64,000 nt of DNA, taken from the NCBI GenBank assembly GCA_965277495.1, contig OZ255824.1, forward strand, positions 2,687,452 through 2,751,451, read 5' to 3'. The position numbers were made by a program, and so were the translations under genes. Origin of the DNA: Acetobacteraceae bacterium. Lineage in GTDB: Bacteria; Pseudomonadota; Alphaproteobacteria; Acetobacterales; Acetobacteraceae. Within the stretch, counting starts at the first letter, position 1, and each line of letters opens with the position of its first letter. A model generated the notes under the pieces. It ran no database searches. It was not told where the DNA came from and worked only from the letters and a program-made list of their open reading frames with translations. This document shows positions 19,518-49,830 of the stretch, one piece after another.

Positions 19518-20996
19518 TCACGTGCCGCAGAAAGTCTGGTAGGCGCGGTCGGCCCGCGCGGGCGGCATGGCGTAACGCTCGAAGCCCGGCGTGTCTTCGT
19601 AGGGCCTCGACAGCGCCGCCAGCAGGCGCTCGAACGGTTGAAGGTCGTCGCGTTCCACGGCGGCGGCGAGCGCCTCCTCCACGAGGTGGTTGCGCGGGAT
19701 CACCGCCGGGTTCACTGCACGCATGGCGGCGGCGCGTGCGGCCGGGGCCTCGGGTTCGTCCGCCAGGCGCTCGCGCCAACGTGCGGCCCACCCGTCGTAG
19801 GCGGTGCCGTCCGTGAACAGCCTGCGCACGGCCGCGTCGCCCTCCGGCCCCGCTGCTGCGGCGCACAGGCCGCGGAACGTCAGGGTGAAATCGGCTCCGT
19901 TCTCGGCCATGCGCGTCAGTAGGTCCTGCACCAAGGCGTCGTCGCCCTCGCGCCCGGCGGCGAGGCCGATCTTGCGATACAAGCCGCCGAGATAGGCCGC
20001 CTCGAAGCGCGGGCCGAAGGCGGCAAGCGCCTCCTGTGCCGATACGATGGCCGAGTCCTTATCCTTGCCGAGCAGCGGCAGCATCGCCTCGGCCAGCCGC
20101 GCGACGTTCCAGTGCGCGATGCTTGGCTGGTTGGCATAGGCGTAGCGTCCGGCGTGGTCGATGGAGCTGAACACCGTGGCCGGGTCGTAGGCATCCATGA
20201 AGGCGCACGGGCCGTAATCGATGGTCTCGCCGGATAGGGAGGTGTTGTCGGTGTTCATCACGCCGTGGATGAAGCCGATCAGCAGCCATTGCGCCACAAG
20301 CCCCGCCTGGCGGGCGACAACGCCGTCCAGCAGGGCGCGGTATGGGTTCTGGGTTCCCTCGGCTTCCGGGTAGTGGCGGGCGATCACGTGATCGGCCAGC
20401 AGCCGCGACCCCTCCACGTCGCTCCGCGCTGCGAAATACTGGAACGTGCCCACGCGGACATGGCTCGCAGCGACCCGCGTCAGCACGGCGCCGGGCAGCG
20501 GCATCTCGCGCAGCACGGTTTCCCCGGTGGCCACCGCAGCCAGCGCCCGGGTGGTCGGCACGCCGAGCGCGGCCATGGCCTCGCTGATTAGATATTCGCG
20601 CAGCACCGGGCCCAAGGCGGCGCGTCCGTCGCCCCGGCGGGAGAACGGCGTCGGCCCGGCGCCCTTGAGCTGGATATCGCGCCGGACGCCGTCCCGGCCG
20701 ACGACCTCGCCGAGCAGGATGGCGCGTCCGTCCCCGAGCTGCGGCACGAAGCCGCCGAACTGGTGCCCGGCATAGGCGAGCGCAATGGCCTCCGCCGCCG
20801 CGGGCAGGCGATTGCCGGCGAGGGTTTCCACCCCGTCCGGGCTGCCCAACTCGTTGGGATCAAGCCCAAGCTGCTCGGCAAGCGGGACGTTGATCCGGAT
20901 GAGCCGGGGCGCGGCGACGGGTGTCGGGGCGACGCGCGCATAGAAGCGCTCCGGCAGGCGGGCATAGCTGTTGTCGAACGGGAAATGGACGGTCAT
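19518..20996 (-). CDS. selO: Protein adenylyltransferase SelO/YdiU
   Basis: [54 protein letters not shown]-terminal YQTFCGT. Confidence 0.93.
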
Positions 20997-25589: not shown

Positions 25590-25904
25590 CTACGGCCCGT
25601 CTTGCCCCGACGCCATCGCGGCCAGCACTCCACGCGCCCGTTCCACCTCGGGCCACGGCACCTTGCCCAGCGGGAAGTGCCCGGCCAGCACGACGCTGAT
25701 CAATGCGTTCACCCGTTCCAGCCGCCGGCGCGAATCCCCGTGTCCCTGCCGGGCTTCGGCGAGCAGCAGGTCGCGCAGTTTGCAAAGGTGCTCGGTCGCG
25801 GCTGCGAAATCCGTGTCGTCCTTGCGGGGCTTATGCGCGATCGCCTTGTCCAGCGAGGCAAGCGCCGCCCATGCTTGGTCTTCCTGGGCTTGCTCCTCAG
25901 CCAT
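25590..25904 (-). CDS. Small helical hypothetical protein, translationally coupled downstream of Sec-FDH alpha
   Basis: SD GGGAGG; its ATG overlaps the alpha-subunit stop (ATGGCTGA); VNALISVVLAGHFPLG segment. Confidence 0.75.
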   Translation of the reverse strand: MAEEQAQEDQAWAALASLDKAIAHKPRKDDTDFAAATEHLCKLRDLLLAEARQGHGDSRRRLERVNALISVVLAGHFPLGKVPWPEVERARGVLAAMASGQDGP

Positions 25905-28900
25905 GGCCGCCTCCCGCAACCGCCAGCCGGCCCGGACGCAAGCCGCACGTCAGCGCCTTCGTGCTGTGGATGCTGGTGTTGGCATCACCGGTGATCGCCA
26001 GCAGCGCATTGGCCACGTCGCCGCGCGCATAACCCTGCCAGCCGAACACCCAGGGCACGCCGATCTGATAGACGGTCCGGCCATTGATCTGGAACGGGCG
26101 CATGCGCTCCGTCACCATAGCCTTCGCCTCGATCTCGGCCCTGAGCGTCGAAAGCACGGTCCAGCCCAGGTGCTCGATGCCAAGTAGCCCGGCCAGCTCG
26201 GGCGGGATCTCCACGAACATCTCCGGCTGCAGTTCCGCGGTATGCGGGGCGACCCGGCTGATGACGCCGCCGCAATGCAGCTCGGTCAGCCGGAAGGTCG
26301 TCAGCACGTAGGGGAAGCGTGGATCCTCCGGCGCGTGCAGCTCGTTGCCCGGACGGGTCCAAAGCTTGGCGCCCGGATTGAACTGCTGGCCGGGATACAA
26401 CGAGTTGCGCACCGGGCTTTCGACGGGTTCGTAGTGCGCCGGCAACGGCCCGTCCTTCAATCCGGACGGCGCGAACAGCATGGACCGCCCGTCCACCTCC
26501 ATGATGAACGGGTCGTCGCCGCCCAGCGCGTCCATGCCGTGCGGGTGCTTGCTCCAATCCGGGCGGTAGTCGGGGCGCTTGGTTTCCTCGAAGTCCGGCA
26601 CGTCGTCGCCGGTCCACTTGCCCGCGTCCTCGCTCCACCAGACCATGCGCTTGCGCTCGGACCATGGCTTGCCGTCGGGGTCGGCGGAGGCACGGTTATA
26701 CAAGGTGCGGCGGTTGGACGGCCAGGAGAACGCCCAGCCGAGGTGGCTGCCGGGGCCGCCGGGGCCGTCCGGCGTGCGGGACCGCGCCACGTTGTGCCCG
26801 TCCGCCGGGTAGACGCCGCAATACATCCAGCCGCCGCACGCGGTGGAGCCGTCGTCCTTCAATTGCTTGTAGCTTGGCACCTGCTTGCGGTCGGCGACGG
26901 TGTAGCCGTTGATCTCGCGCAGCACCGCCTCGGCGTCCGGTTCCTGCCGCTCGCCACGCTCCGGGTAATCCCATGTCAGCGCCTGCATTGCCGCATCGGA
27001 CGCCGCCGTGCTTCCGGCGTACAGCTCCTTTAACCGCTTGCCGAGGTGGTAGATGAACCAGAGGTCCGACCGGCTGTCGCCCGGCGCGTCCAGCACGGCA
27101 TCGTGCCATTGCACCAGGCGGCTGGTGTTGGTGACGGTGCCATCCTTCTCCCCCGACAGCGCCGTGGGCAGGAAGAACATCTCCGTGCCGATGTCCGCGG
27201 GCGTCGTCTCACCCTTCTGCACCAGGCGGCCCTTCTGCCAAAAGTTGGCGGTCTCGGTCATCGCGAAATCGCGCACCACCATCCATTCCAGCTTGGCGAA
27301 GCCGCGCTCCACCAGTTCGGAGTTGACGGCGCCGACGGCGGGGTTCTGGCCGAGGATGAACTGCCCCTTCACCACGCCCGCCGCCATGGCCAGCGTCATC
27401 GGCAACTGCGACACGTCCCCGGTCAGCTTGGGGATGAAATCATAGCCCCAACTATTCGCCGCCTGCGCGTGCTCGCCGTACCAGGCTTTCAGCAGGCTGA
27501 TCATGTATTTGGGGAAGTTGTGCCACCAGCCGGTCGCCGGCGTCTCGACCTTGAGGAAGCGGTCCAGGGTGCCGTGGTCGTGAAAGGCGTTCGGCTGCGG
27601 CAGATAGGTCGGCAGCATGTTGTACAGCGTCGGGATGTCGGTGCTGCCCTGGATGCTGGCGTGGCCGCGCAGCGCCATGATGCCTCCGCCGGGCCGTCCG
27701 ATATTGCCCAATAGGCCCTGGATGATGCTGGCCGCGCGGATGATCTGCACGCCGGTCGTATGATGCGTCCAGCCGACAGCGTAGCAGAATGCCCCGGTGC
27801 GCTCGCGCCCGGAGTTGCGCGCTAGCGCGTCGGCGACCCGGAGGAACGTCTCGGCCGGGCACCCGGTCGCCTGCTCGACCATCTCCGGCGTGTAGCGGGC
27901 ATAATGCCGGCGCATGATCTGGTAGACGCAGTTCGGGTGCTGCAGGGTCGGGTCCTGTTGCGGCGGGCTGTCGGCCATGCTCTCCTGCTGGCCGGCATCC
28001 GCCTCCTGCTCCTCCACCCGGTGCTCGGCAAGCGGCGCCTGCACGAGCTTGCCCTTGTATTGCCAGGTGTCGTGCTCGTAGGTCCCGGTCTCGGGATCGA
28101 AGCCGGAGAACACGCCGCCCATTTCCTCGGGTCCGCGGTAGCCGTCCTCGATGATGTGGGCGATGTTGGTGTAGCGCAGCGCGAACTCACGGAACCAGAG
28201 ATCGCCCTCGAGGATGTGGCGGATGATCCCGCCGAGGAAGGCGATGTCCGACCCCGACCGGATCGGCGCATGGATGTCGGCCAACGCCGAGGTGCGGGTG
28301 AAGCGCGGGTCCACGTGGATCACGGTCGCCCCGCGCGTCTTCGCCTCGATGACGAAGCGGAACGCGATCGGATGGTTCTCCGCCATGTTGGAGCCCATGA
28401 TGACGACGCAGTCCGAGTTCGCCAGGTCCCACAGGGACATCGTGGCGGCGCCGCGTCCGAAGGTGGCGCCCAAACTGGGCACCGATGAGGAGTGTCAAAT
28501 TCGGGCTTGGTTCTCGATGCTCACCATGCCGAGGCCGCCGCCGAACAGCTTCTTGATGAGGTAGTTTTCCTCGTTGTCCAGCGTGGCGCCACCGAGCGAG
28601 GCGACGCCGACCGTGTGGTTGACCAGCTTGCCGTCCGGCAGCCGCTCCACGAACGTCTCGTCCCGCGCCTGCTTCGTCAGTTGCGCGATACGCTCCATGG
28701 CCCAGCCGAGCGGCCTTTCCTCCCAATGGTCGCTGTGCGGGGCGCGGTAGAGCACCTGGTTGATCCGCTCCGGGCTGAGCAGCACGCCCAGCGTGCTGGC
28801 GCCTTTGGGGCAGAGCGTCCCCTGGTTGACCGGGCTGCGCGGGTCGCCCTCGATGTGGATGGGCTTGCCGTTCTTGGCATAGACGAGCTGCGCGCAGCCG

Positions 28901-29088
28901 ACGGCGCAGAACGGGCAGATGCTGGTGCCGACCCGGTCCGCCTGCTCAAGCCGCGGGCGCAGCGTTTCGGACGCCGTGCTGCGCGCCGCGGCGGACATCG
29001 CGCTCTGCCCGGCCATCTGGCGCGGCAACGACCAATCGCGCAGGAAGCGGGAGATGCGTCGTGCAGGGGTGCGGCGGATTTTCGGCAT
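25897..29088 (-). CDS. fdhA: Selenocysteine-containing formate dehydrogenase alpha subunit (Mo/W-bis-PGD), 1063 aa with UGA read as Sec at 28495-28497
   Basis: ORFs 28495..29346 and 25897..28482 are in one frame, joined by ENQARI-[TGA]-HSSSVPSLGATFGRGAAT (FdnG-like QARVUH). CPFCAVGC...CPKG Fe-S motif; ALRGHASIQGSTD; SD AAGGA before ATG 29088. Confidence 0.92.
28465..28497 (-). promoter_or_regulatory. UGA codon plus bacterial SECIS hairpin
   Basis: UGA-CACUCCUCAUC-GGUGCCCA-GUU-UGGGCGCC: an 8-bp stem (one G.U pair) whose loop starts with GU, 20 nt after UGA. Confidence 0.8.
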
Positions 29089-29250
29089 GGGCTTATCCTT
29101 TGGCTGCCAGCAAGTGGGGCCTGGCATAAACGCGGCGCACGGCTTAGGTCGCAAGCGCCATCGATTACAAAATGTTAAGTATCCCACTATCGAGCAAGCC
29201 GAGCCGGATTGCGCGTGTTGTAGTCCGGAGCGCGCAAAGGACGGTTCGCG

Positions 29251-29472
29251 ATGGACGTTATGGACGGCATGGTCACGGTGGTGCAGGAAAGCCGGTTCCA
29301 ACTGACGGACGACCGGGGCGTGTCGCATTTGTTCATCCTGGGCCACGACGCGGCCGCGGAGCCCGACCAGCTCGCCGTACTATCACGGCGGCAGGCCCGG
29401 GTCCGGGTGCGCTACACGCAAGCAGAAAACCTGATCGGCCTCGTCGCCCACTCCGTTTCCACCGCCCCCTGA
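29251..29472 (+). CDS. Small hypothetical protein (beta-rich), first gene of the divergent FDH beta/NrfD operon
   Basis: SD AAGGA; GMVTVVQESRFQLTDDRGVSHLFIL; high-GC codon usage; ends 15 bp before the beta subunit. Confidence 0.75.
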   Translation: MDVMDGMVTVVQESRFQLTDDRGVSHLFILGHDAAAEPDQLAVLSRRQARVRVRYTQAENLIGLVAHSVSTAP

Positions 29473-29487
29473 TCCGAAAGGCGCATC

Positions 29488-30384
29488 ATGGACATGCACC
29501 CCCGCGTGCTCGATCACACGCAATCCCGCTTGGACCATGTCATCCCGAACGAGAGCGAGCTGACGGCCGGCGCGCTGATCGAGCCCGGCAAGTCCTATGG
29601 CTTTTTCACCGACACCACGGTCTGCATCGGCTGCAAGGCGTGCGAGGTCGCGTGCAAGGAGTGGAACAACCTGCCCGCCGACAACATCGGGCTGACCGGC
29701 CAGAGCTACGACAACACCGGGGCGTTGTCGGCCAACACCTGGCGGCACGTCAGCTTCGTCGAGAAAAGCGGCTGCGGCGGCGTGCGCGACAACAACGAGG
29801 CGCCGTTCCAGAGCGGCTGGCTGATGATGAGCGACGTGTGCAAGCACTGCCATAATGCGCCCTGCATAGAGGCCTGTCCGACCGGGGCGCTGTTCCACAC
29901 CGAGTTCAGCACAGTCGTCGTGCAGCAGGACATCTGCAACGGCTGCGGCTATTGCATTCCCGCCTGTCCGTTCGGCGTGGTCGACCTCAACACCATCGAC
30001 GGCAAGGCGCATAAGTGCACGCTTTGCTACGACCGGCTGAAGGGCGGGCTGGAACCGGCGTGCTCGAAGGCGTGCCCGACCGACAGCATCCAGTTCGGCG
30101 AGATCGGCGGCCTGCAACAGCGCGCGGCGCGCCGGGTCGAGCAACTGCACGAGGCCGGGGCCGCCAACGCCTACCTTTATGGCGTGCCGGGTTCGCCCGG
30201 CGCCACCGGGGACCTGGGCCACCTCAATGCCTTCTTCCTGCTGACCGAGCGTCCGGAGGTTTACAACCTGCCGGCAGCGCCAACCCGCGCCTCGAACCGG
30301 GTGGCGCCAAGCCTCGCCTCCGGCCTGGCGACGGTGGCCGGGCTGGCGCTCGCCGCGTTCGCCGTTTTCTCCAGCCGGGACTGA
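29488..30384 (+). CDS. FDH beta (FdnH-like) 4x[4Fe-4S] subunit with C-terminal TM anchor
   Basis: CIGCKACEVAC, CKHC...PCIEACP, CNGCGYCIPACP, CTLC...PACSKACP; hydrophobic C-terminal helix. Confidence 0.9.
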   Translation: MDMHPRVLDHTQSRLDHVIPNESELTAGALIEPGKSYGFFTDTTVCIGCKACEVACKEWNNLPADNIGLTGQSYDNTGALSANTWRHVSFVEKSGCGGVRDNNEAPFQSGWLMMSDVCKHCHNAPCIEACPTGALFHTEFSTVVVQQDICNGCGYCIPACPFGVVDLNTIDGKAHKCTLCYDRLKGGLEPACSKACPTDSIQFGEIGGLQQRAARRVEQLHEAGAANAYLYGVPGSPGATGDLGHLNAFFLLTERPEVYNLPAAPTRASNRVAPSLASGLATVAGLALAAFAVFSSRD

Positions 30385-30393
30385 GGAGGCATC

Positions 30394-31431
30394 ATGTCCG
30401 ACGAACGCGTGACGTCCACTCAGCGCCTGGCCACCGGGCATGGCCCGCAGGAAGCGCCGCTGGTCCCGCAATCGGGCACCGCCGGCGCCGTGGTGCGCGA
30501 CGGCATACCTACTTACTATGGCCGGTCGCAGCTCAAGCCGGCGCCGTTCAACAACTGGGTCGTGGGCGGCTACGTTTTCCTGGCCGGGCTATCGGGCGCG
30601 TCCGCCTTGCTGGCCGCGGCGGGGGACCTGGGGCGCGGACGGGAGGCGGGCGGCCTCGTGCGCCGGGGCCGTTATTTGTCGTTGCTGGCGCCCACCATCG
30701 GCTCCGCCCTGCTGGTTTGGGACCTGCATACGCCGCAGCGGTTCTATAACATGCTGCGCATCGCCAAGGCGACCTCGCCCATGTCGATCGGCACCTGGCT
30801 GCTGATGTCGTTCACGGGGTTCGCCGGATTGAGCGCTGCGGCGCAATTCGGGGCGGACCGGTTCGGCTGGCGCTGGATGCGCCGGGCGGCGCGGTTCACC
30901 CAAGTGCCGGCCGCCGCGGTGGGCGCGGGCATGTCCACCTACACGGCCGCGCTGCTGTCCGCGACCAGCACGCCGCTCTGGGCCGCCGCCCCGCAGGCGC
31001 TGGCCGTCCGGTTCGGCAGCTCCTCGATCGCGAGCGGGGCTGCGGCGCTTTCGCTCGGCGAACGTCCGGGGCGGAACCGACGCGCGCTGGACACCATCGC
31101 ATTGGCGGCGCTGGCGACGGAACTCATGGCCGCCACGGCGTCGCACCGCACCTATCGGCAAAAGGGCGTGGCCGCGGCGCTCGATGGCGGCTGGGGCCAG
31201 GTGGAGCGGATGGGCGCCACCGGGGCCGGCAACCTGCTGCCGCTTGGCCTTCACGCCGCGTCGCTGCTGCTGGGGCGGGGCCGCGATTCGGGGCTGTCGA
31301 GGCTTGCCTCGTTCGCTGTCCTGGCCGGCAGCGCCTTGCTGCGGGTCTCGATCATGGCGGCGGGCGACGAGTCGGCGCGGCGGCCAGAGATCAGCCTTGG
31401 CTACGCGCAACCGGAGAACTTGCCGGAGTAG
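30394..31431 (+). CDS. NrfD/PsrC family membrane anchor (quinone-interacting)
   Basis: GGYVFLAGLSG, LVWDLHTPQRF, SPMSIGTW, YTAALL, TPLW; about 8 TM. SD GAGGAGG. Confidence 0.88.
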   Translation: MSDERVTSTQRLATGHGPQEAPLVPQSGTAGAVVRDGIPTYYGRSQLKPAPFNNWVVGGYVFLAGLSGASALLAAAGDLGRGREAGGLVRRGRYLSLLAPTIGSALLVWDLHTPQRFYNMLRIAKATSPMSIGTWLLMSFTGFAGLSAAAQFGADRFGWRWMRRAARFTQVPAAAVGAGMSTYTAALLSATSTPLWAAAPQALAVRFGSSSIASGAAALSLGERPGRNRRALDTIALAALATELMAATASHRTYRQKGVAAALDGGWGQVERMGATGAGNLLPLGLHAASLLLGRGRDSGLSRLASFAVLAGSALLRVSIMAAGDESARRPEISLGYAQPENLPE

Positions 31432-31443
31432 CCCGCCAGAAAC

Positions 31444-31536
31444 GGGCGGAGGCGGATAGGAATCGAACCTACCGCACGCTGTTGGCGCGCCACTGGTTTT
31501 GAAGACCAGGGAGGCCACCAGACCCCAATCGCCTCC
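31444..31536 (-). tRNA. selC: tRNA-Sec (anticodon UCA)
   Basis: GGAGGCGA acceptor, 6-bp D-stem GGGGUC/GGCCUC, CUGGU-CUUCAAA-ACCAG anticodon arm, long variable arm GCGCGC/GCGUGC, GUAGG-UUCGAUU-CCUAU T-arm, G discriminator. CCA is not encoded. Confidence 0.95.
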
Positions 31537-31570
31537 GCTACCCAGGCTATCACCGGCCCGCGGGTCTCTG

Positions 31571-33445
31571 CTAGCCCGCCTGCGCCAGCACGCGGCGGTC
31601 GCCGATTCGGCGGGTGAAGTGCATGGCGTCCAGGTGCTCCAACAGCGGCACGCTATACTTGCGGGAGATGCCGAGCGCCGCGCCGGCCTCCGCCACCCGC
31701 AGCCCCGGCCCTTGCGCCAACAGGGGCGCCAGCACCCGCCGGGCGGCATCGACGGCATCGCGATGGAACACCACGTCGCGCTTCTGCACGCGGTCCGCCG
31801 CACGGATCGCCGCGCCCTCCCGCACCAGCCGGTCCAGCGCCTGACGGGTCGGCAGGTCCGGCGCCAGCGCAGCCGGGTCGGGCGGCGACAGCCCAGCGCG
31901 GCGCAGCGTGTCGGACAGGCGGGCCGCAAGGGTTGCCGCGGTCCGTGCCCGGCTGGCATCCTGGTCCGGCCGGGGCAGCCCGACCAGCCCGCCCTTGACC
32001 TGGACGACGCCCGATGCCGAGAGGCGGGCCAAGGCCGCATCCAGCACCGCCGGGCCAGTGCCGGGCATCAACCGTTGCAGCCCGTCCCGCGGCAGCCCGA
32101 CCGCCGGCTGTGCGGCCAGCAGGGCTGGGATACGGCGCAGCACGGCGTCAAAGGCTTCCCGCGCGACCGCGGCCTGGCCAGGCAGCACGAGGGCCGAGTC
32201 CGGGAGCAGGTCCGCCAGGCGGCCCGGGGCCACGCCGGCGAGCCGCGCGAGATCGGGCAGCGGCACCCCTGCGCCGCCGACTGCCACGATACACTGCGCC
32301 ACGATGCCCCGCGCATCCGATCCAGGCAGGGCCGCAAGCCGTCCTAGTGCCGCCGGCGTGCTCCGGCGCAACCGGACCGCCGCGGGATCAAGGACCATCC
32401 CGCCGGCGACCGTCAGCGCCGGGGACGCCGTGCGCAGGATGAAGCGTTCACGCGCCGGGGTTGCGACCGGCTGGGTGCAGCGCAGTTGCACCTGGGCCGC
32501 AGCGCCCGGCGCCAGCTCGTCGCGGTCGAGCAGGCGGAGGCGCACCGGCACCTCGGTCGTGCCCAGCAGCAGTTGCAGCACCATGCCGTTGCGCAGCGGC
32601 GGCGCGTCGTCCAGTGCATGCACGTCGACGCTTAACCAGGCCGACGCGGGCAGCAGCCCCGCCGCTGTGAGGGCGACGCCGCGTCCGACCTGCGCCACGT
32701 CCACCCCGCGCAGATTGGCCGCCACGCGCTGGCCCGGAACGGCGGTGGCCACTCGCGCGCCATGGACCTGCAATCCCCGGATGCGCGCCGTCAGCCCGCC
32801 CGGCGCGACCTCGATGGTGTCGCCCGCCGCCAGCACGCCGCGGCGGAGCGTTCCGGTCACGACGGTCCCATGGCCCGGCACGCTGAACGCGCGGTCCACC
32901 GGCAGGAACGGGAATCCGTCGTCGCCCGGCGGCGCTGCACCGTCCCCCAAAGCCGCGATGGCCTGCCGCAGCGCCTCGATGCCCTGGCCGGTGGCCGCGG
33001 ACACGGCCACTGCCGGCGATGCTTCCAGGCCGGCCCGCGCCAACAGGGCGGCGGCGTCCCGGCCGGCCGCTGCGGCCTGCGCGGGGGACACGAGGTCGGC
33101 CTTGGTGACGGCCACCACCGCCCGGCGCAGCCCGAGCAAACCGGCGATGTCCACGTGCTCCCGGGTCTGCGGCATGACCCCCTCATTCGCCGCAACGGCC
33201 AGCAGCGCCGCGCCGATGCCGGTCGCGCCGGACACCATCGTTCGCACGAAACGCTCGTGGCCCGGCATGTCCACCAGATCCACCACCGCATCGCCGGCGC
33301 CAAAATGGGCGAAGCCGAGCACGATGGAGATGCCGCGCTGCCGTTCCTCCTCCAGCCGGTCGGTTTCCATGCCGGTCAGGGCGCGCACAAGGGCGGTCTT
33401 GCCGTGGTCCACATGGCCGAGCACGCCCACTACCAGCCGCGTCAT
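31571..33445 (-). CDS. selB: Selenocysteine-specific elongation factor
   Basis: GHVDHGKT, DRLEEERQRGISI, DMPGHERF, TKAD, PVDRAFSVPGHGTVVTGT, C-terminal winged helix SRKYSVPLLEHLD. Confidence 0.95.
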   Translation of the reverse strand: MTRLVVGVLGHVDHGKTALVRALTGMETDRLEEERQRGISIVLGFAHFGAGDAVVDLVDMPGHERFVRTMVSGATGIGAALLAVAANEGVMPQTREHVDIAGLLGLRRAVVAVTKADLVSPAQAAAAGRDAAALLARAGLEASPAVAVSAATGQGIEALRQAIAALGDGAAPPGDDGFPFLPVDRAFSVPGHGTVVTGTLRRGVLAAGDTIEVAPGGLTARIRGLQVHGARVATAVPGQRVAANLRGVDVAQVGRGVALTAAGLLPASAWLSVDVHALDDAPPLRNGMVLQLLLGTTEVPVRLRLLDRDELAPGAAAQVQLRCTQPVATPARERFILRTASPALTVAGGMVLDPAAVRLRRSTPAALGRLAALPGSDARGIVAQCIVAVGGAGVPLPDLARLAGVAPGRLADLLPDSALVLPGQAAVAREAFDAVLRRIPALLAAQPAVGLPRDGLQRLMPGTGPAVLDAALARLSASGVVQVKGGLVGLPRPDQDASRARTAATLAARLSDTLRRAGLSPPDPAALAPDLPTRQALDRLVREGAAIRAADRVQKRDVVFHRDAVDAARRVLAPLLAQGPGLRVAEAGAALGISRKYSVPLLEHLDAMHFTRRIGDRRVLAQAG

Positions 33446-34812
33446 GCGCCGCACGCCGCCCGCACCGCGGCCGCGACCTCGGGCACCTCGGCGTCCCCGA
33501 CGGCCACCATGTCGAGCCAAACCCGTCCGTCGGCGATGCGCCCGACGACGGCGGGGCGCTGTGCCCGCAGGCGCCGGGCCAGGCCGTCTGCCGGCAGGCC
33601 TGGAACGCACAGGGTTACGGCTCGGCTGGGGAAGGATTGCAACGGCAGCGTCCCGCCGCCGGCCTCTGCGCGGCTGGCCTCGATGGCGGCGTCGGCCAGG
33701 GCCGGCAGCAGCGCGGCCAGGCGTTCCGCCCGGGCCTGCAAGGTGGCCTCATCCTGGCCCAGCATCCGCAGGGCCGGGACCGCCGCCCCGTCCGCATGTA
33801 GGCGCAGCGTCGCTTCCAGCGCGGCCAGCGTCAGCTTGTCCAGCCGGACGGCCCGCAGCAGCGGATGACGCCGCAAGGGATGCACCGCCGCCTGGCGCCC
33901 CACCAGCAGCCCGGCCTGCGGGCCGCCCAGCAGCTTGTCGCCGCTGAACATCACCAGGTCTGTCCCGGCGGCGAGCGAGTCCCGCACCGTCGCCTCCTCA
34001 AAGTTTCCGAGGCCGGCCAGCGCGCCGCTGCCCAGGTCGTGCAGCAACAGCAGCCCACGCTCCCGCGCCAGCGCCGACAGCTCGTCCAGCCCGGCGGCGG
34101 CGGTGAACCCGGCGATGCGGTAGTTGCTGGGATGCACCTTGAGCAGCACGCGGGTCGCTGGCGTGATGGCGTCGCGGTAGTCGGCCAGCCGGGTCTTGTT
34201 GGTGGTCCCGACCTCCACCAACCGGGCGCCGCCTTGCCGGATCACCTCGGGGATGCGGAACCCGCCGCCGATCTCGACCAGTTCGCCGCGGGACACCACG
34301 ACCTCGCCGCCGCCCGCCAGCGCGGCGAGGGCGAGCAGCACGGCGGCGGCGCAGTTGTTGACGGCCAGCGCCGCCTCCGCGCCGGTGACGGCCTGCAACG
34401 CCGCTTCTACCCCGCCGCCCCGAGGGCCGCGCGCGCCGGCGTCCAGGTCATACTCCAGGTTGGTGTAGCCCTGCGCCGCTTCCGCAACCGCCGCCGCCGC
34501 TTCCGGCGCCAGGGGCGCGCGGCCGAGATTCGTGTGCAGGATGATTCCGGTCGCGTTCACGACCCGGCGCAGCACCGGACGCCGGGCCGACTCCAGGGCC
34601 GCGCCGGCCCTTGCCAGCACCCAATCCGGGTCCGGCGGCGCGGCCGTGCCCCCTTGCAGCAGGGCCGCCCGCGCCTCGTCCAGCACGGCCCGAATCGCAT
34701 TGGCGACGGCGGCGCGCGACGCCGTGCCGAGCAGGGCCTGCGCCGCCGTCGACTCCAGCAGCCGCTGCACCTGCGGCAATGCACGCAACTTTGCGGCGAC
34801 AGCCTCGTCCAT
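33442..34812 (-). CDS. selA: L-seryl-tRNA(Sec) selenium transferase
   Basis: VVNATGIILHTNLGRAP, SRGELVEIGGGFRIP, EVGTTNKT, LKVHPSNY, FSGDKLLGGPQAG (PLP Lys). Confidence 0.95.
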   Translation of the reverse strand: MDEAVAAKLRALPQVQRLLESTAAQALLGTASRAAVANAIRAVLDEARAALLQGGTAAPPDPDWVLARAGAALESARRPVLRRVVNATGIILHTNLGRAPLAPEAAAAVAEAAQGYTNLEYDLDAGARGPRGGGVEAALQAVTGAEAALAVNNCAAAVLLALAALAGGGEVVVSRGELVEIGGGFRIPEVIRQGGARLVEVGTTNKTRLADYRDAITPATRVLLKVHPSNYRIAGFTAAAGLDELSALARERGLLLLHDLGSGALAGLGNFEEATVRDSLAAGTDLVMFSGDKLLGGPQAGLLVGRQAAVHPLRRHPLLRAVRLDKLTLAALEATLRLHADGAAVPALRMLGQDEATLQARAERLAALLPALADAAIEASRAEAGGGTLPLQSFPSRAVTLCVPGLPADGLARRLRAQRPAVVGRIADGRVWLDMVAVGDAEVPEVAAAVRAACGA

Positions 34813-34893
34813 CCGGCGTTCCGGCCTCCCTCTAAGCATCATCTCGCAGGGCGCCCTTGCGCGCTGCGAATAAGATGATGCGTTATCAAAGGC

Positions 34894-34939
34894 CCCTAAG
34901 CAGGCATTCGTTGGCCACGCCACGAATGCCTGCTTAGGG
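34894..34939. repeat. Perfect 17-bp inverted repeat in the divergent selA/selD intergenic region
   Basis: CCCTAAGCAGGCATTCG (34894-34910) / CGAATGCCTGCTTAGGG (34923-34939). The spacer adds a TGGC/GCCA stem. Confidence 0.9.
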
Positions 34940-34985
34940 CGGCGGTAATGTCATGCTTGCGCCGCAGCGCTCAAGGAGGAATCGG

Positions 34986-36029
34986 TTGGCCGACATCAAA
35001 CTTCGCCTGACGGAGCTTGCCCATGGCGGCGGCTGCGGCTGCAAGCTGGCGCCGTCCGTGCTGCATGGCCTTCTGGCGGCGATGCCGGAAGCGGCGGCCT
35101 TCCCGAACCTGCTGGTGGGAACGGAGACCGGCGACGACGCCGCGGTTTACCGGCTGAACGCCAGCCAGGCGCTGGTCGCCACCACGGATTTCTTCACGCC
35201 AATCGTCGACGATCCCTACGACTTCGGGCGGATCGCCGCGACGAATGCGCTGTCGGACGTGTATGCCATGGGCGGCACGCCGATCCTGGCGCTGGCCATC
35301 GTCGGGATGCCGTTGAACAAGCTGTCCGTCGCGGAGGTGGGGCGCATCCTGGCGGGCGGGGCGTCGGTCTGCGCCGCCGCGGGCATCCCGGTCGCGGGCG
35401 GGCATTCCATCGACAGCCCGGAGCCGATCTACGGCCTGGCGGCGCTGGGCCTGGTGCATCCGGACCGGGTGTTGCGGAACAGCGGGGCGCGTCCGGGGGA
35501 CCGGCTGATCCTGACCAAGGGCCTGGGCGTCGGCGTGCTCGGCGCGGCGTTGAAGGCGGGACGGCTGGACGCGCCGGGATACGCCGCCATGCTGGCCTCC
35601 ACGACGCGGCTGAACGATGCCGGCACTTGGCTGGCGGAGCTGCCGGGCGTGCATGCCGCCACGGATGTGACCGGCTTCGGGCTGTTGGGCCATTTGCTGG
35701 AAATGTGCCGCGGCTCCGGCCTGAGGGCGACGGTCCGGCTGCAGGATGTGCCCTTGCTGGCGGGCGTCGCGGACCTGGCGCAGCAAGGCCTGGCAACCGG
35801 CGCGTCGGCACGCAACTGGGCCAGCTATGGCGCCGAAGTGACGCTGCCCGCGGCCTTGCCGGACTGGCAGCGCGTCCTGCTGTGCGATCCGCAGACCAGC
35901 GGCGGCCTGCTGATCGCGGCATTGCCGGAGGCAGCGAGGCCATTATTGGACCGCCTGCTTGCGTCGGGATGGGCGGCTGCCGACATCGGCGATGTCGGCG
36001 CAGGGTTGCCCGGCGTGACCGTCGTTTAG
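34986..36029 (+). CDS. selD: Selenide, water dikinase (Cys-type)
   Basis: [74 protein letters not shown] before TTG 34986. Confidence 0.95.
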
Positions 36030-44528: not shown

Positions 44529-45125
44529 TTGGCGCATAAGTTGGACGAGGTCGAGACGGCGCGCGCGCTGGTGTACCGGATGCTCGGCCACGCCCTGGCC
44601 CAGCCGCCTGACGCTCGGCTTCTGGCGCGGCTTGCCGGCGTGGACGGCGATGGCAGCTCGGTCGGCCTGGCGTTGCGGGAACTGGCGGCGCAGGCGTCCG
44701 GCTGTTCCATCGAGGCCGCGCGCGCCGAGTATAACGCCCTGTTCATCGGCGTGGCCCGCGGCGAGCTGCTGCCCTACGCGTCGTTCTACCTGACCGGCTT
44801 CCTGCATGAACGCCCATTGGCCCGGCTGCGCACCGACCTGGCGCGGCTCGGCTTCGTGCGGGCGCCGGGCCGGTCGGACCCCGAGGACCATATCGCGACG
44901 GTGTGCGAGGTGATGGCGAGCCTTACCGAACGCGGACCCGTCGCCGGGGCGGAGTTTTTCGCCCGGCACTTGGCGCCATGGGGCACTAGCTTTTTCACCG
45001 ACCTGGAACGGGCCAATGCGGCGCGCCTGTATCGCCCGATCGGCGCCATTGGCCGGTTGATGGTCGAGTTGGACCGCCAAGGCTTCGCCTACGCCGAAAC
45101 ACCCCCACAACGAGGTGCAGCATGA
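44529..45125 (+). CDS. TorD/DmsD family redox-enzyme maturation chaperone
   Basis: EYNALFIGVARGELLPYASFYLTG, PEDHIA, FFARHLAPW. Confidence 0.9.
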   Translation: MAHKLDEVETARALVYRMLGHALAQPPDARLLARLAGVDGDGSSVGLALRELAAQASGCSIEAARAEYNALFIGVARGELLPYASFYLTGFLHERPLARLRTDLARLGFVRAPGRSDPEDHIATVCEVMASLTERGPVAGAEFFARHLAPWGTSFFTDLERANAARLYRPIGAIGRLMVELDRQGFAYAETPPQRGAA

Positions 45126-45316
45126 CCGATAAGCCCGATACGCCCGTCCGGGCAAACCGGCGCGCCTTCCTCCGCGGCGCCGGCATCGCCGCCGTCGCCG
45201 CCCCCTTGTCCGCCAGCGCCGCCGAAAAGCTGGTGCAGCCGACCAGCCACCAGGCTCCGGCGCGCTATAAGGACAGCGAGCACGTCCAGCAATTCTACGC
45301 GCTGAACCGCCGTTAG
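45122..45316 (+). CDS. Formate dehydrogenase region small Tat-target protein
   Basis: NRRAFL twin-arginine signal; C-terminal YKDSEHVQQFYALNR. Confidence 0.85.
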   Translation: MTDKPDTPVRANRRAFLRGAGIAAVAAPLSASAAEKLVQPTSHQAPARYKDSEHVQQFYALNRR

Positions 45317-45325
45317 AGGCCCGCC

Positions 45326-48208
45326 ATGCTGACAAAACAACGCCCCGCCTTTGCCTCTCGCGCGCTTCCGGTCCTGCCAGAAGCCGCCGACACGCCCGGC
45401 GCGCTCGACCGGCGCGGGTTCCTGCGCACCTCCGGCCTGGCCGCCGCCGGGCTTGGCGCGCTGGGTGGTCTCGGGATGACGACGGTGCAGCACGCCGCCG
45501 CCGGGGAGATCGTGCCCGGCGAACCCGTTGAAACCCGCAAGACCGTCTGCACCCATTGCTCGGTCGGCTGCTCCGTCATCGCCCGGGTGCAGAACGGCGT
45601 TTGGGTCGGGCAGGACCCGGCGTTCGACAGCCCAAACAACCTCGGCACCCATTGCGCCAAGGGCGCCGCGGTGCGCGAGCTGACGCATGGCGACCGCCGG
45701 CTGAAATACCCGATGAAGCTGGTGGGCGGCTCTTGGCAGCGGTTAAGCTGGGAGCAGGCGATCGACGAAATCGGCGACAAGATGCTGGAAATCCGCGAGA
45801 AGTCCGGCCCGGATTCCGTGTTCTGGCTCGGCTCCGCCAAATTCAACAACGAGGCCGCCTACCTGTTCCGCAAGTTCGCGGCGCTGTGGGGCACCAACAC
45901 CTGCGATCACCAGGCGCGGATTTGCCACTCCACCACCGTGGCGGGCGTGGCCAACACGTTCGGCTATGGCGCCATGACCAACAGCTTCAACGACCTGGTC
46001 AATTCCAAAGCCATCATGATCATGGGCGGTAACCCCGCCGAGGCGCATCCGGTCTCATTGCAGCATCTGCTGCGCTCCAAGGAGATCAACCAGGCCGAGC
46101 TGATCGTCGTCGACCCGCGTTTCACCCGCACCGCCGCGCATGCGACGGAATACGTGCGCATCCGGCCCGGCACCGACATCCCGGTAATCTGGAGCATCCT
46201 CTGGCACGTGTTCGATAACCACTGGGAGGACCAGGGCTTCATCGACCGGCGCGTCTACGGCATGGACGCGGTCCGCGAGGAGGTGAAGAACTGGCATCCG
46301 GAGGAGTCTGAGCGGGTCACCGGCGTGCCGCGCGCGCAGCTCCGCAAGGTCGCGGAGATCATGGCGAAGAACCGGCCTTCGAGCCTGATCTGGTGCATGG
46401 GCGCGACGCAGAAGACCGTCGGCACCGCGAACGTCCGCGCCTACAGCATCCTGCAACTGGCGCTCGGCAACATGGGCATCTCGGGCGGCGGCACCAACAT
46501 CTTCCGCGGCCACTGCAACGTGCAGGGCGCGACCGACCTCGGGCTCGATGTGACGACCCTGCCGGCCTATTTGGGCCTCGACGAGGCGGCGTGGCGGCAT
46601 TTCGCCCGGGTATGGGACCTGGACTACGACTACCTGGTGTCGCGTTTCGCGTCCAAGAAGCTGATGGAGACAAAGGGCATCCCGTCCACCCGCTGGTTCG
46701 ATGCCGTGCTGGCGGAAAAGGGCACGCTCGACCAGCCCGACAACGTGCGCGCGATGGTCGCCTGGGGCCACGCGGCCAACTCGATCACCCGCGAGCCGGT
46801 GATGCGGCAGGGCATGAACAAGCTGGATCTGATGCTGGTGGTGGACCCGCACCCGACCACCTTCGCCATCTCGGGCGACCGCAAGGACGGCACCTATCTG
46901 CTGCCGGCCTGCACGCAATTCGAGCAGTCGGGCAGCGTGACCGGGTCGAACCGGTCGATACAGTGGCGCGAGCAGGTGGTGAAGCCGATCTTCGAGAGCA
47001 AGCAAGACTCCGAGATCATGTACCTGCTCGCGAAGAAGTTCGGTTTCGCCGAGCAGCTCGTGAAGCACATCGAGGTGCAGGACAACGTGCCGGTGTCGGA
47101 GGACATCCTGCGCGAGATCAACCGCGGGTGCTTCGCCATCGGCTACAGCGGCCAGTCGCCAGAGCGGATCAAGATGCACATGAAGCATCAGGGCGACTTC
47201 GACCCGGCCACGCTGCGGGCCACCAGCGGTCCCTGTGCCGGCGACTATTATGGCCTGCCGTGGCCGTGCTGGGGCACGCCGGAGCTGAAGCATCCAGGGA
47301 CCGCGTTCCTGTATAACACCAAGGTTCCGGTCAAGGAGGGCGGCAGCGGCTTCCGCGCGCGCTGGGGCGTGGAGCGCAACGGCGTGTCCATGCTGGCCGA
47401 CGATTACCCCGAGGGTTCCGAGATCAAGGGCGGCTATCCCGAGTTCACCATGGCCGTGCTGAAAAAGCTCGGCTGGGACAATGAGCTCACGGCGGCGGAG
47501 ATGGACGTCATCCGCAAGGTCGGCGGCAACAACCTCGATGCCGTAAGCTGGCAGACCGACCTCAGCGGCGGCATCCAGCGGGTGGCGATCGAGCATGGCT
47601 GCGCGCCATTCGGCAACGGCCGCGCCCGCGCCAACGCCTGGAACCTGATCGACCCGGTGCCGATCCACCGCGAGCCGATCCAGACGCCGCGGCGCGACCT
47701 GGTGGCGAAGTATCCGGCGCTCGAGGACCGGCGCGACTTCCGCCTGCCGTATCTCGGGCGCAGCCTGCAGATGGTGGACAAGTCGAAGGACTTCCCGCTG
47801 ATCCTCACCTCCGGACGCCTGGTGGAATACGAGGGCGGCGGCGACGAAACGCGCTCGAACCGCTGGCTCGCCGAGATCGTCGAGGAGGCGTATGCCGAGA
47901 TCAACGTCGAGGATGCCAAGCGCCTGGGGATCGCCGACAAGGGCATGATCTGGGTTTACGGCGCCGAGAGCAACTCGAAAGCGCACCTGCGGGCGCATGT
48001 CAGCACGCGGACCGGACCCGGCGTCGTGTTCATCCCGTTCCACTTCGGCGGCATTACCGCGGGCGTGGACAACCGCGGCAAGTATCCGCAGGGATTGGAC
48101 CCGATCGTGGTGGGCCACGCGGTGAACCAGCTCACCACCTACGGCTATGACTCCGTGACGCATATGCAGGAAACCAAGGTTACGCTTTGCCGGGTCGAAG
48201 CGGCTTAA
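45326..48208 (+). CDS. Cys-type periplasmic formate dehydrogenase alpha subunit (Fdh3-like)
   Basis: Tat DRRGFL; CTHCSVGC...CAKG; DHQARICHSTT (Cys ligand); RGHCNVQGATD; TSGRLVEYEGGG. Confidence 0.93.
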   Translation: MLTKQRPAFASRALPVLPEAADTPGALDRRGFLRTSGLAAAGLGALGGLGMTTVQHAAAGEIVPGEPVETRKTVCTHCSVGCSVIARVQNGVWVGQDPAFDSPNNLGTHCAKGAAVRELTHGDRRLKYPMKLVGGSWQRLSWEQAIDEIGDKMLEIREKSGPDSVFWLGSAKFNNEAAYLFRKFAALWGTNTCDHQARICHSTTVAGVANTFGYGAMTNSFNDLVNSKAIMIMGGNPAEAHPVSLQHLLRSKEINQAELIVVDPRFTRTAAHATEYVRIRPGTDIPVIWSILWHVFDNHWEDQGFIDRRVYGMDAVREEVKNWHPEESERVTGVPRAQLRKVAEIMAKNRPSSLIWCMGATQKTVGTANVRAYSILQLALGNMGISGGGTNIFRGHCNVQGATDLGLDVTTLPAYLGLDEAAWRHFARVWDLDYDYLVSRFASKKLMETKGIPSTRWFDAVLAEKGTLDQPDNVRAMVAWGHAANSITREPVMRQGMNKLDLMLVVDPHPTTFAISGDRKDGTYLLPACTQFEQSGSVTGSNRSIQWREQVVKPIFESKQDSEIMYLLAKKFGFAEQLVKHIEVQDNVPVSEDILREINRGCFAIGYSGQSPERIKMHMKHQGDFDPATLRATSGPCAGDYYGLPWPCWGTPELKHPGTAFLYNTKVPVKEGGSGFRARWGVERNGVSMLADDYPEGSEIKGGYPEFTMAVLKKLGWDNELTAAEMDVIRKVGGNNLDAVSWQTDLSGGIQRVAIEHGCAPFGNGRARANAWNLIDPVPIHREPIQTPRRDLVAKYPALEDRRDFRLPYLGRSLQMVDKSKDFPLILTSGRLVEYEGGGDETRSNRWLAEIVEEAYAEINVEDAKRLGIADKGMIWVYGAESNSKAHLRAHVSTRTGPGVVFIPFHFGGITAGVDNRGKYPQGLDPIVVGHAVNQLTTYGYDSVTHMQETKVTLCRVEAA

Positions 48209-48225
48209 TTTAGGGAGAGGCGCCC

Positions 48226-48822
48226 ATGGCGCGGATGAAGTTCCTCTGCGACGCCGAGCGGTGCATCGATTGCAACGCCTGCGTCACCGCCTGCAAGAAC
48301 GAGCACGAGGTGCCCTGGGGTCTCAACCGGCGGCGCGTGGTCACGCTGAACGACGGCGAGCCCGGCGAGCTCTCGGTCTCCATGGCATGCATGCATTGCA
48401 CGGACGCGCCATGCGCCTCGGTGTGCCCGGTGAACTGCTTTGTGCAGACCGCCGACGGAATCGTGCTGCACAACAAGGACCAGTGCATCGGCTGCGGCTA
48501 TTGTTTCTACGCCTGCCCGTTCGGCGCGCCGCAGTTCCCGTCCAAATCCAACTTCGGCAGCCGCGGCAAGATGGACAAGTGCACCTTCTGCGCCGGCGGT
48601 CCCGAGGGCAGCAACTCGCCGGAGCAGTTTGCCAAGTACGGCCGTAACCGGCTGGCGGAGGGCAAGCTGCCGATCTGCGCCGAGATGTGCTCGACACGCT
48701 CGCTGCTGGCCGGCGACGGGGCGACGATCGGCGCGATCTACAAGGAGCGCGTCCTGCGGCGCGGCTATGGCTCCGGCGCCTGGGGCTGGTCCACCGCCTA
48801 TCGCGACAGCCCGACGGTCTAA
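48226..48822 (+). CDS. fdh3B: FDH beta Fe-S subunit
   Basis: CIDCNACVTAC, CMHCTDAPCASVCP, CIGCGYCFYACP, CTFC...PICAEMC. Confidence 0.92.
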   Translation: MARMKFLCDAERCIDCNACVTACKNEHEVPWGLNRRRVVTLNDGEPGELSVSMACMHCTDAPCASVCPVNCFVQTADGIVLHNKDQCIGCGYCFYACPFGAPQFPSKSNFGSRGKMDKCTFCAGGPEGSNSPEQFAKYGRNRLAEGKLPICAEMCSTRSLLAGDGATIGAIYKERVLRRGYGSGAWGWSTAYRDSPTV

Positions 48823-48834
48823 AAGGGACTTCCT

Positions 48835-49830
48835 ATGCGCATTGCCCCGCTTCTGGCGCTTCTCGTTTTCTTCGGCGGCACCGCCTGGGCGGTCGATATG
48901 CCGCGAAACCGGCCCGAACCCGACCGTGCGGCGCTGGAGCAGCGGCTCGATCAGGAGCGCAATCTTCCGCCCGGACGCATCCAGGGCTTCGTGCACGAGC
49001 CCGACACAAAGCTCGGCGTGCTGATCCAGCCGCAGGGCCGGGAGTTCCGCGATTTCCGCACGCGCTGGCAGCCCTGGATCGATGCCGCACTCATTGTGGT
49101 CGCCGTGGGCGCCATGGTGCTGTTGTATTTCGTCGCGGGTCCGATGCGCTATACCAAGGACCCGCGCGGCCGCACGATCCAGCGCTTCACCGTGCTGGAG
49201 CGGCTTGTGCATTGGCTGACGGCGGTGTCGTTCATCTGGCTGTCGCTGACCGGGCTGAACCTGGTGTTCGGGCGCTGGTTGCTGGAGCCGCTGATGGGCG
49301 ATAACGCCTATGCCAGCATGACGTCGCTGGCGAAGCTGTCGCACAACTCGGTCGCCTTCGCCTTCATGCTGGGGCTTGCGGTTATGGCGGTGCAGTGGCT
49401 GGGGCGCAACCTGCCGACCATGCTGGACCTGCAGTGGATCAAGGCGGCTGGCGGCATATTCGGCGGGCCGCATCCGCCGGCGCAGAAGTTCAACGCCGGG
49501 CAGAAGATGATCTATTGGATTGCGGTCGGCGGCGGCGGGCTGATTTCACTCACCGGCCTCGCGCTGCTGATGCCGTTCTATGTGTTCGACATCGGCGGCA
49601 TGCAGCTCATGCAGGTGGTGCACTCGGTGGTCGCGGCGTTGATGATGGCGGTGGTGATTGGCCACATCTACCTTGGCTCGATTGGCGTGCAGGGGTCGCT
49701 GCAGGCGATGACCACTGGCCGGGTCGATGTGAACTGGGCGCGGGAGCACCACGGGCTGTGGCTCAAGGAGGAACAGGCGAAGGGCCGCGCGCCTAGGGAT
49801 GTCGACGCGTCGATGCACGCGGCCGAGTAG
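48835..49830 (+). CDS. FDH gamma subunit, cytochrome b (FdnI-like) with N-terminal periplasmic extension
   Basis: Signal-like N-terminus; ERLVHW, KLSHN, KFNAGQK, VVHS, GHIYLG His ligands; WAREHH. Confidence 0.92.
   Translation: MRIAPLLALLVFFGGTAWAVDMPRNRPEPDRAALEQRLDQERNLPPGRIQGFVHEPDTKLGVLIQPQGREFRDFRTRWQPWIDAALIVVAVGAMVLLYFVAGPMRYTKDPRGRTIQRFTVLERLVHWLTAVSFIWLSLTGLNLVFGRWLLEPLMGDNAYASMTSLAKLSHNSVAFAFMLGLAVMAVQWLGRNLPTMLDLQWIKAAGGIFGGPHPPAQKFNAGQKMIYWIAVGGGGLISLTGLALLMPFYVFDIGGMQLMQVVHSVVAALMMAVVIGHIYLGSIGVQGSLQAMTTGRVDVNWAREHHGLWLKEEQAKGRAPRDVDASMHAAE

Follow-up and report, generated by a model that had tools for sequence, protein, structure and literature searches.

A selenocysteine-dependent formate dehydrogenase cluster in an Acetobacteraceae bacterium adjoins recoding genes that probably have a separate history and may serve a second UGA-containing gene

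We analysed a 10.4-kb island in a stretch of 64,000 nucleotides (the window), which comprises positions 2687452-2751451 of the complete 4.59-Mb chromosome of an Acetobacteraceae bacterium (67% GC). We conclude with good confidence that the island is a chromosomal cluster in which the genes of a membrane-bound, selenocysteine (Sec)-dependent molybdopterin formate dehydrogenase (FDH) of the NF041513 type lie beside the only tRNA-Sec, selA and selD genes of the genome and one of its two selB genes, that the FDH and sel genes have separate histories, and that the island is not a private, self-contained cassette. For comparison, we scanned species-representative genomes, which returned 246 relatives, and kept 80 loci whose alpha subunits are 72-92% identical to that of the window. 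Below, G000 denotes the genome of the window, other G-numbers denote genomes of the same genus, which are mostly fragmented metagenome-assembled genomes (MAGs), and L-numbers denote extracted loci.

The original prediction, made from the DNA letters, had placed a Sec-FDH alpha subunit, an Fe-S subunit, an NrfD anchor, tRNA-Sec, selA, selB and selD within the island, and profile searches, ARAGORN and Rfam confirmed each of these genes and its position. The predicted arrangement in four alternately oriented units likewise agrees with the gene layout, in which p109 and alpha are on the minus strand, p73, the Fe-S subunit and NrfD on the plus strand, selA, selB and tRNA-Sec on the minus strand and selD on the plus strand. 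The alpha subunit scored 1494 bits against the NF041513 formate_DH_Act model, which exceeds the NCBIfam cut-off of 1400 and covers profile positions 3-1051 of 1067, and it also passed TIGR01553 (952 bits, cut-off 814). In an N-terminal alignment of related alpha subunits, from which duplicates were removed, the N-terminus displayed the conserved motif F..DW(S/T)(L/I)PRQ. The Fe-S subunit reached 172 bits with the FDH-beta model TIGR01582, which is under the cut-off of 334.7. A cytochrome b556 gamma subunit (Ni_hydr_CYTB) was sought in the Sec-FDH unit and not found, the third subunit being the NrfD protein (PF03916); within the window, a cytochrome b gamma occurs only in a separate cluster for a Cys-type enzyme, at 48835-49830. 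The original prediction had likened alpha and the anchor to an actinobacterial type of Sec-FDH and not to Fdn/Fdo of E. coli, and the passing NF041513 score together with an anchor that is NrfD and not cytochrome b supports that comparison.

The alpha frame contains a single internal TGA, at 28495-28497 (codon 198), in the context ENQARI-U-HSSSVP. Routine gene calling would break alpha in two at this codon, as happened with the other UGA-containing gene of the genome described below, and in principle the TGA could be a genuine termination codon or an inactivating change, with the two open reading frames (ORFs) representing a split or dead gene. We regard this explanation as extremely improbable, since the TGA is found at the same codon in the 87 alpha sequences that we extracted, both halves are under coding constraint, with GC content at third codon positions (GC3) of 0.82-0.90, a covarying hairpin lies at the proper distance from the TGA, and the full Sec machinery adjoins alpha. 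All same-genus alpha homologues have one TGA each. To describe the hairpin, we used 78 distinct homologous sequences, over which stem pairing was 95.5%, compared with 24-49% when the 3' partner was slid by 1-3 nt. Compensatory switches occur at third-codon-position pairs of the stem (G:C to C:G and C:G to U:A), and the UGA of the Rfam SECIS_3 model aligns with the alpha UGA. From this covariation, we take the hairpin as a probable functional selenocysteine insertion sequence (SECIS).

The recoding genes of the island form a complete selA, selB, selC and selD set, as had been predicted, with SelA, SelB and SelD scoring over their equivalog cut-offs and tRNA-Sec being the only gene of its kind among the 57 tRNA genes of the genome. 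A search of the genome for selU found none, and because selU is absent, SelD is not retained for selenouridine; that alternative role for SelD was ruled out. We fixed the starts of selB and selA from homologues. The start of the island SelB (SelB1) was set at 33445 from the homologue in L097, a metagenomic contig, so that the selB ATG overlaps the selA stop (ATGA). Homologues of SelA are ~457 aa long and align with 92% of the extended reading frame, which places the selA start at 34812, where a Shine-Dalgarno site was also read. By analogy with the established bacterial Sec pathway, we infer a working scheme in which SelD would form selenophosphate, SelA would convert Ser-tRNA-Sec to Sec-tRNA-Sec, and GTP-bound SelB would bind both Sec-tRNA-Sec and the hairpin 15-33 nt past UGA-198 of the alpha mRNA, so that Sec would be inserted as a metal ligand. 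Electrons taken from formate would then pass through the alpha, beta and NrfD subunits into the quinone pool. FdhD is a factor needed to activate formate dehydrogenases, and its gene lies at 1.709 Mb of G000, ~1 Mb from the island. The description of the island as self-contained therefore stands for recoding and fails for FDH maturation.

The original prediction had also taken FDH to be apparently the only client of the recoding genes, and this claim did not survive a search of the whole genome for in-frame UGA codons followed by hairpins, which revealed one further candidate selenoprotein gene beyond alpha. A strict scan for in-frame TGA, based on GC content by codon position, gave 50 candidates, nearly all of which were gene junctions. 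With relaxed criteria and a filter for hairpins, the scan yielded 308 hits, of which most were noise caused by off-frame ORFs, and it re-found alpha together with an SBP_bac_5-like gene ~456 kb from the island. These two frames were the cases that did not lie at gene junctions, in a scan that could miss short selenoproteins with Sec near either end. The SBP_bac_5-like protein is without a signal peptide, its UGA lies in the context GHW-U-VIDAPGPWGTGPF (motif GHW-U-VID), and its Pfam SBP_bac_5 domain (residues 51-374) spans the TGA. The TGA column is kept in orthologues (75% identical) and paralogues (58-60%) from two same-genus genomes. The DNA around the TGA is nearly invariant, synonymous sites included, and folds as a hairpin with a GUGGG loop. 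All 120 database homologues listed are 295-333 aa long, or 60-66% of the query; this is the length expected of C-terminal fragments cut at the UGA, and the split was seen directly at the 2 loci inspected. Together, these observations support reading of this UGA as Sec. The SBP_bac_5-like UGA family was not found in 400 genomes drawn evenly across the class, which indicates that it is rare at that sampling, and we did not find it among NCBIfam models or in a catalogue of prokaryotic selenoproteins published in 2026 (PMC13188914).

Directly downstream of the SBP_bac_5-like gene is a second selB, the product of which (SelB2) is 36% identical to SelB1. The SelB proteins linked to SBP_bac_5-like genes form a clade far from the FDH-linked SelB proteins, and the same pair of genes is also present in Methylobacterium sp. 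WL2, in another genome of 4.57 Mb, and in G004 and G005. In G004, the gene order is SBP_bac_5-like UGA gene, selB, tRNA-Sec, selA. Because tRNA-Sec, selA and selD are each present as a single copy, in the island, the machinery encoded there must serve both UGA-containing genes if the SBP_bac_5-like gene is translated. We consider the case evenly balanced for a reading in which the island would be the shared hub of a two-client Sec system, serving FDH through SelB1 and a leaderless, probably cytoplasmic SBP_bac_5-like selenoprotein that is always accompanied by its own deeply divergent SelB2 and a near-invariant SECIS. As a separate observation, locus L109 (ERZ26692348 contig_1: 198459-213415) has the SBP_bac_5-like UGA gene and selB between an IS66-family transposase gene and genes for a relaxase and an LPD7 protein, a setting that suggests a mobile element.

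The FDH and sel genes of the island differ in how they relate to those of the same genus. Compared with same-genus genomes, alpha and the Fe-S subunit are 92% identical, NrfD 83-86%, p73 82% and p109 77%, and most other genes shared with these genomes are 72-95% identical. In contrast, SelA (64-67%), SelB (61-67%) and SelD (71-74%) are no closer to their same-genus counterparts than to those of other genera. The phylogenies that had been proposed as a check gave a divided result: in the alpha tree, the window groups with its genus (support 100), whereas in the SelA and SelB trees it falls outside the genus. The ratio of maximum-likelihood distances for SelA and SelB relative to alpha is 8.5-8.7 between the window and its genus, whereas almost every other pair gave 2-3.5. 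An approximately unbiased (AU) test on concatenated SelA, SelB and SelD rejected a single clade of the window and its genus (p-AU = 0.0048). These sequence comparisons are most simply read as vertical inheritance of the FDH operons within the genus and exchange of the sel block. Elsewhere in the data set, L032 and L051 have nearly identical alpha subunits (distance 0.036) and divergent SelA and SelB (0.23), for a ratio of 6.4, which may represent a second exchange of a sel block.

We next consider the proposal, made in the original prediction, that the whole 10.4 kb is a recently acquired, self-sufficient mobile cassette that brought recoding genes for a single client. The same gene set exists on pYA7-1a (NZ_CP110115.1), a conjugative plasmid of Arthrobacter sp. 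YA7-1, in the order fdh-FeS-nrfD-selD-tRNASec-selA-selB, with a site-specific integrase gene on one side and a Tn3 transposase gene on the other, and by this analogy modules of such make-up can move. The literature points the same way. Operons of selA, selB and selC with an adjacent fdhA were described in proteobacteria by Zhang et al. in 2006, who argued that the trait can be transferred only if a selenoprotein gene moves along with it (PMC1794560); Mukai 2021 (PMC8124441) and a 2026 mycobacterial study (PMC13449736) took the same view for other lineages, the latter proposing horizontal gain in mycobacteria. A survey of relatives, which the original prediction had suggested, confirmed that selA and the NF041513-type FDH are patchy across the genus and family. 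Nevertheless, the scanned flanking genes, which encode SelO, an MFS protein, a GH16 protein, an OYE-family flavin oxidoreductase (PF00724), an unknown protein and a polyferredoxin, included no integrase or transposase, and no direct repeats were found flanking the island. There is no compositional break either, as the GC3 of the island genes (0.81-0.90) falls inside the range of the window. Furthermore, only the FDH genes, and not the sel genes, cluster with those of the genus, the position of the sel block varies (G007 has it across the FDH genes from where it lies in the window, and G013 on a separate contig), and a second UGA-containing gene, a second selB and fdhD are all located elsewhere in the genome. 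We therefore find recent acquisition as one cassette quite unlikely for G000, while the general claim that such modules are movable holds for pYA7-1a.

Several points weigh against our conclusion of a membrane-bound Sec-FDH in a chromosomal cluster with separate FDH and sel histories. The Rfam SECIS_3 match at 28442-28500 (36 bits, E = 3e-5) is under the gathering score. A conserved twin-arginine and a hydrophobic core were looked for in the alpha N-terminal alignment and neither was found, yet a 2026 paper on the homologue of Rhodococcus equi (PMC13332983) argues for a degenerate twin-arginine translocation (Tat) signal, and formate might thus be oxidized at either face of the membrane. A search for the empty site in 17 same-genus genomes, with selO and the polyferredoxin gene as anchors, found selO alone to be shared and no synteny; because the congeners are mostly fragmented MAGs without shared synteny, the borders of the island and its insertion history are not readable. 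In an AU test on SelA alone, a common clade with the genus was not rejected (p = 0.116). Finally, the discordance between FDH and sel genes could stem from exchange of the FDH operon within the genus. Under this alternative, the sel block is vertical and the pair of FDH operons was recently exchanged with congeners, resulting in a 92% identical alpha beside a 65% identical SelA. The outlying ratio of SelA and SelB to alpha distances fits such an exchange, though the ratio alone is silent on which partner moved, and the sel order of the window is the one most frequent in other genera. We judge the alternative unlikely, as 92% identity suits a slowly evolving protein given the baseline and alpha is still ~80% identical between genera, while p109, p73 and NrfD scale like vertically inherited genes. 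In addition, same-genus sel genes nest among those of other genera (support 100 and 99), and the genus has at least three sel lineages, with SelA and SelB of G004 and G005 being 44% and 35% identical to those of the window. Exchange of the sel block beside inherited FDH operons remains the reading that we prefer. The positions of all features are collected in Table 1.

Table 1. Features of the island and of the distant UGA-containing gene pair. Scores are in bits, with NCBIfam cut-offs or the Rfam gathering score after "vs"; island coordinates are window positions.
Feature	Position	Strand	Description
p109	25590-25904	-	104 aa; start overlaps alpha stop; conserved, after alpha in nearly all 80 loci
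FDH alpha	25897-29088	-	1063 aa, Sec at codon 198; read-through translation; NF041513
SECIS hairpin (putative)	28465-28483	-	8-bp stem, G-U-(C/U) triloop, 15-33 nt after U of UGA
p73	29251-29472	+	73 aa; heads the FeS-NrfD unit; upstream of FeS in nearly all loci
Fe-S (beta) subunit	29488-30384	+	Fer4_11 and related models; C-terminal transmembrane helix
NrfD/PsrC-family membrane anchor	30394-31431	+	PF03916, 74.8, residues 55-324
tRNA-Sec	31445-31536	-	anticodon UCA; ARAGORN; RF01852, 75.4 vs 47
selB (SelB1)	31571-33445	-	624 aa; TIGR00475, 292 vs 242; winged-helix domain
selA	33442-34812	-	456 aa; TIGR00474, 521 vs 268; single copy in genome
Two-hairpin repeat element	34833-34934		102 nt; similar to miniature inverted-repeat transposable elements (MITE) or repetitive extragenic palindromes (REP); inserted in selA-selD divergent spacer
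selD	34953-36029	+	Cys form (GGGCGCK); NF002098, 503 vs 299; TIGR00476, 428; single copy
SBP_bac_5-like UGA gene	G000:C1:2259425-2260915		497 codons, TGA at codon 167; locus L102
selB2 (SelB2)	directly downstream of the SBP_bac_5-like gene; pair G000:C1:2259425-2262896		635 aa; TIGR00475, 409

Two small ORFs, p73 and p109, accompany the FDH genes, and their conservation across related loci suggests that both are parts of the module. The p109 alignment (A1) contains invariant P26, R44, N66, P78, G80 and W84. An AlphaFold model of p109 (predicted local distance difference test [pLDDT] score of 92) has four helices, which predicts a four-helix bundle, and a fold search gave weak FliS-like matches (E >= 0.17), as for a generic bundle of this type. 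In the p73 alignment (A2), identity averages 65% per column. The model of p73 (pLDDT 89) had CusF and SilF as top fold matches (TM score ~0.75, E ~1e-3), and p73 is predicted to adopt a small beta-barrel like the oligonucleotide/oligosaccharide-binding (OB) fold. Neither p73 nor p109 matched Pfam, NCBIfam or the sequences of the PDB, for which the best E-values were 0.26 or worse.

Cores composed of alpha-p109 and p73-FeS-NrfD are present in the 80 related loci, which come from Acetobacteraceae (including Belnapia, Roseomonas, Rhodopila, Acidocella and Paracraurococcus), Methylobacterium and Beijerinckiaceae. The label 'actinobacterial' is thus a family name and does not describe host range, as the NrfD-anchored type is widespread in Acetobacteraceae and Methylobacterium. 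The trio of alpha, Fe-S subunit and NrfD is annotated likewise in Arthrobacter and Chelatococcus records. Among the 36 loci with full 10-kb flanks, 15 have sel genes within 10 kb, and these occupy three positions: beyond NrfD, after p109 or upstream of alpha. The arrangement of the window, with selD opposite selA-selB-tRNA-Sec, is the commonest in other genera, and within the genus, in the comparison with G007 and G013, tRNA-Sec adjoins selD and not selB. L097, which encodes proteins 93-98% identical to those of the window, keeps the same order from the Fe-S subunit to the right-hand flank. G004 (L090, G004:C2:2003000-2022000) and G005 (G005:C14) have selA, selB and tRNA-Sec without Sec-FDH, and their sel genes are on the same strand as the SBP_bac_5-like UGA gene. 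By sequence divergence, these genes constitute a third sel lineage of the genus.

The divergent spacer between selA and selD contains a perfect 18-bp inverted repeat (34894-34911/34922-34939) and the repeat element listed in Table 1, which has 12 copies in the genome at 97-100% identity, ends 18 nt before the selD start, and is missing from this site in the close relative L097. A scan for promoters and terminators identified nothing beyond chance. Additional formate dehydrogenases were observed in the window and in congeners. A Cys-type FDH is encoded at window positions 44529-49830, 10 kb from the Sec enzyme, and comprises an uninterrupted 960-aa alpha, a beta subunit of the FDH3 type, a cytochrome b gamma and a chaperone similar to TorD. 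Several congeners (G001, G003, G007, G009, G015 and G016) carry another kind of Sec-FDH, which is FdnG-like (~600 bits, one TGA) and sometimes co-occurs with the NF041513 type; it is absent from G000. To the left of the island, at a distance of 4.6 kb, the gene for a SelO-family protein adenylyltransferase (19518-20996) is free of internal stops, and its counterparts in the genus are 75-80% identical.

The original prediction regarded the island as a poorly described system, which is half true, as the cluster type has been known since 2006 (PMC1794560) and the enzyme appears in papers of 2026 through bioinformatics. An example of selA-selB-selC with a neighbouring fdhA is fdoGHI-selABCD on pSymA of Sinorhizobium meliloti (PMC1794560; PMC8124441). 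The island resembles such clusters of Alpha-, Beta- and Gammaproteobacteria in having Sec machinery clustered with a Sec-FDH, the order selA-selB-selC, selD nearby, a patchy distribution and a proposed horizontal spread. However, the enzyme of the window is of the NF041513 type, with NrfD, two extra ORFs, no cytochrome b and no conserved twin-arginine; its tRNA-Sec is not nested in selB, and FDH is not the sole UGA-containing gene of the genome. The enzyme of alpha, beta and NrfD has been described by bioinformatics in mycobacteria and Rhodococcus (PMC13449736, PMC13332983), and ~40% of mycobacterial genomes carry it, with horizontal gain proposed (PMC13449736). These FDH loci, accompanied by selD-selC-selA-selB, share with the window the alpha family (the alpha of M. 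marinum is 1064 aa, compared with a 1064-codon frame, or 1063 aa plus stop, in the window), the C-terminal helix of beta, the NrfD anchor, adjacent sel genes and an equally uncertain Tat status. They differ in that the host of the window is alphaproteobacterial, its FDH genes are divergent and its tRNA-Sec follows selB instead of preceding selA. Both loci, pYA7-1a of Arthrobacter and the window, have fdh, the 4Fe-4S gene, nrfD, selD, tRNA-Sec, selA and selB as one block, yet the plasmid alpha is ~51% identical and its block is collinear, plasmid-borne and flanked by integrase and Tn3 genes, whereas the window copy is chromosomal without such marks. The ORFs p73 and p109 were not detected in this plasmid locus, the one actinobacterial plasmid locus checked. 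Like FdnGHI and FdoGHI of E. coli, the enzyme has Sec at the metal-ligand position, passes TIGR01553 and has a C-terminal helix in beta; unlike them, it has an alpha that is ~39% identical, a beta under the equivalog cut-off, no cytochrome b556 gamma and no RRxFLK signal.

Taken alone, the island is a further example of the textbook pattern in which the genes for Sec insertion adjoin those of their principal client, FDH. Aerobic alphaproteobacteria commonly have the 'actinobacterial' Sec-FDH with an NrfD anchor, which in them occurs with two conserved, unnamed small partners and without a recognisable Tat signal. That neighbouring enzyme and recoding genes probably have different histories suggests that such clusters are reassembled and not moved whole. 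If the island does act as the hub of a two-client system, two SelB/SECIS specificities would operate on one tRNA-Sec in one cell, and the genome would lend itself to the question of whether SelB paralogues divide SECIS elements between them.

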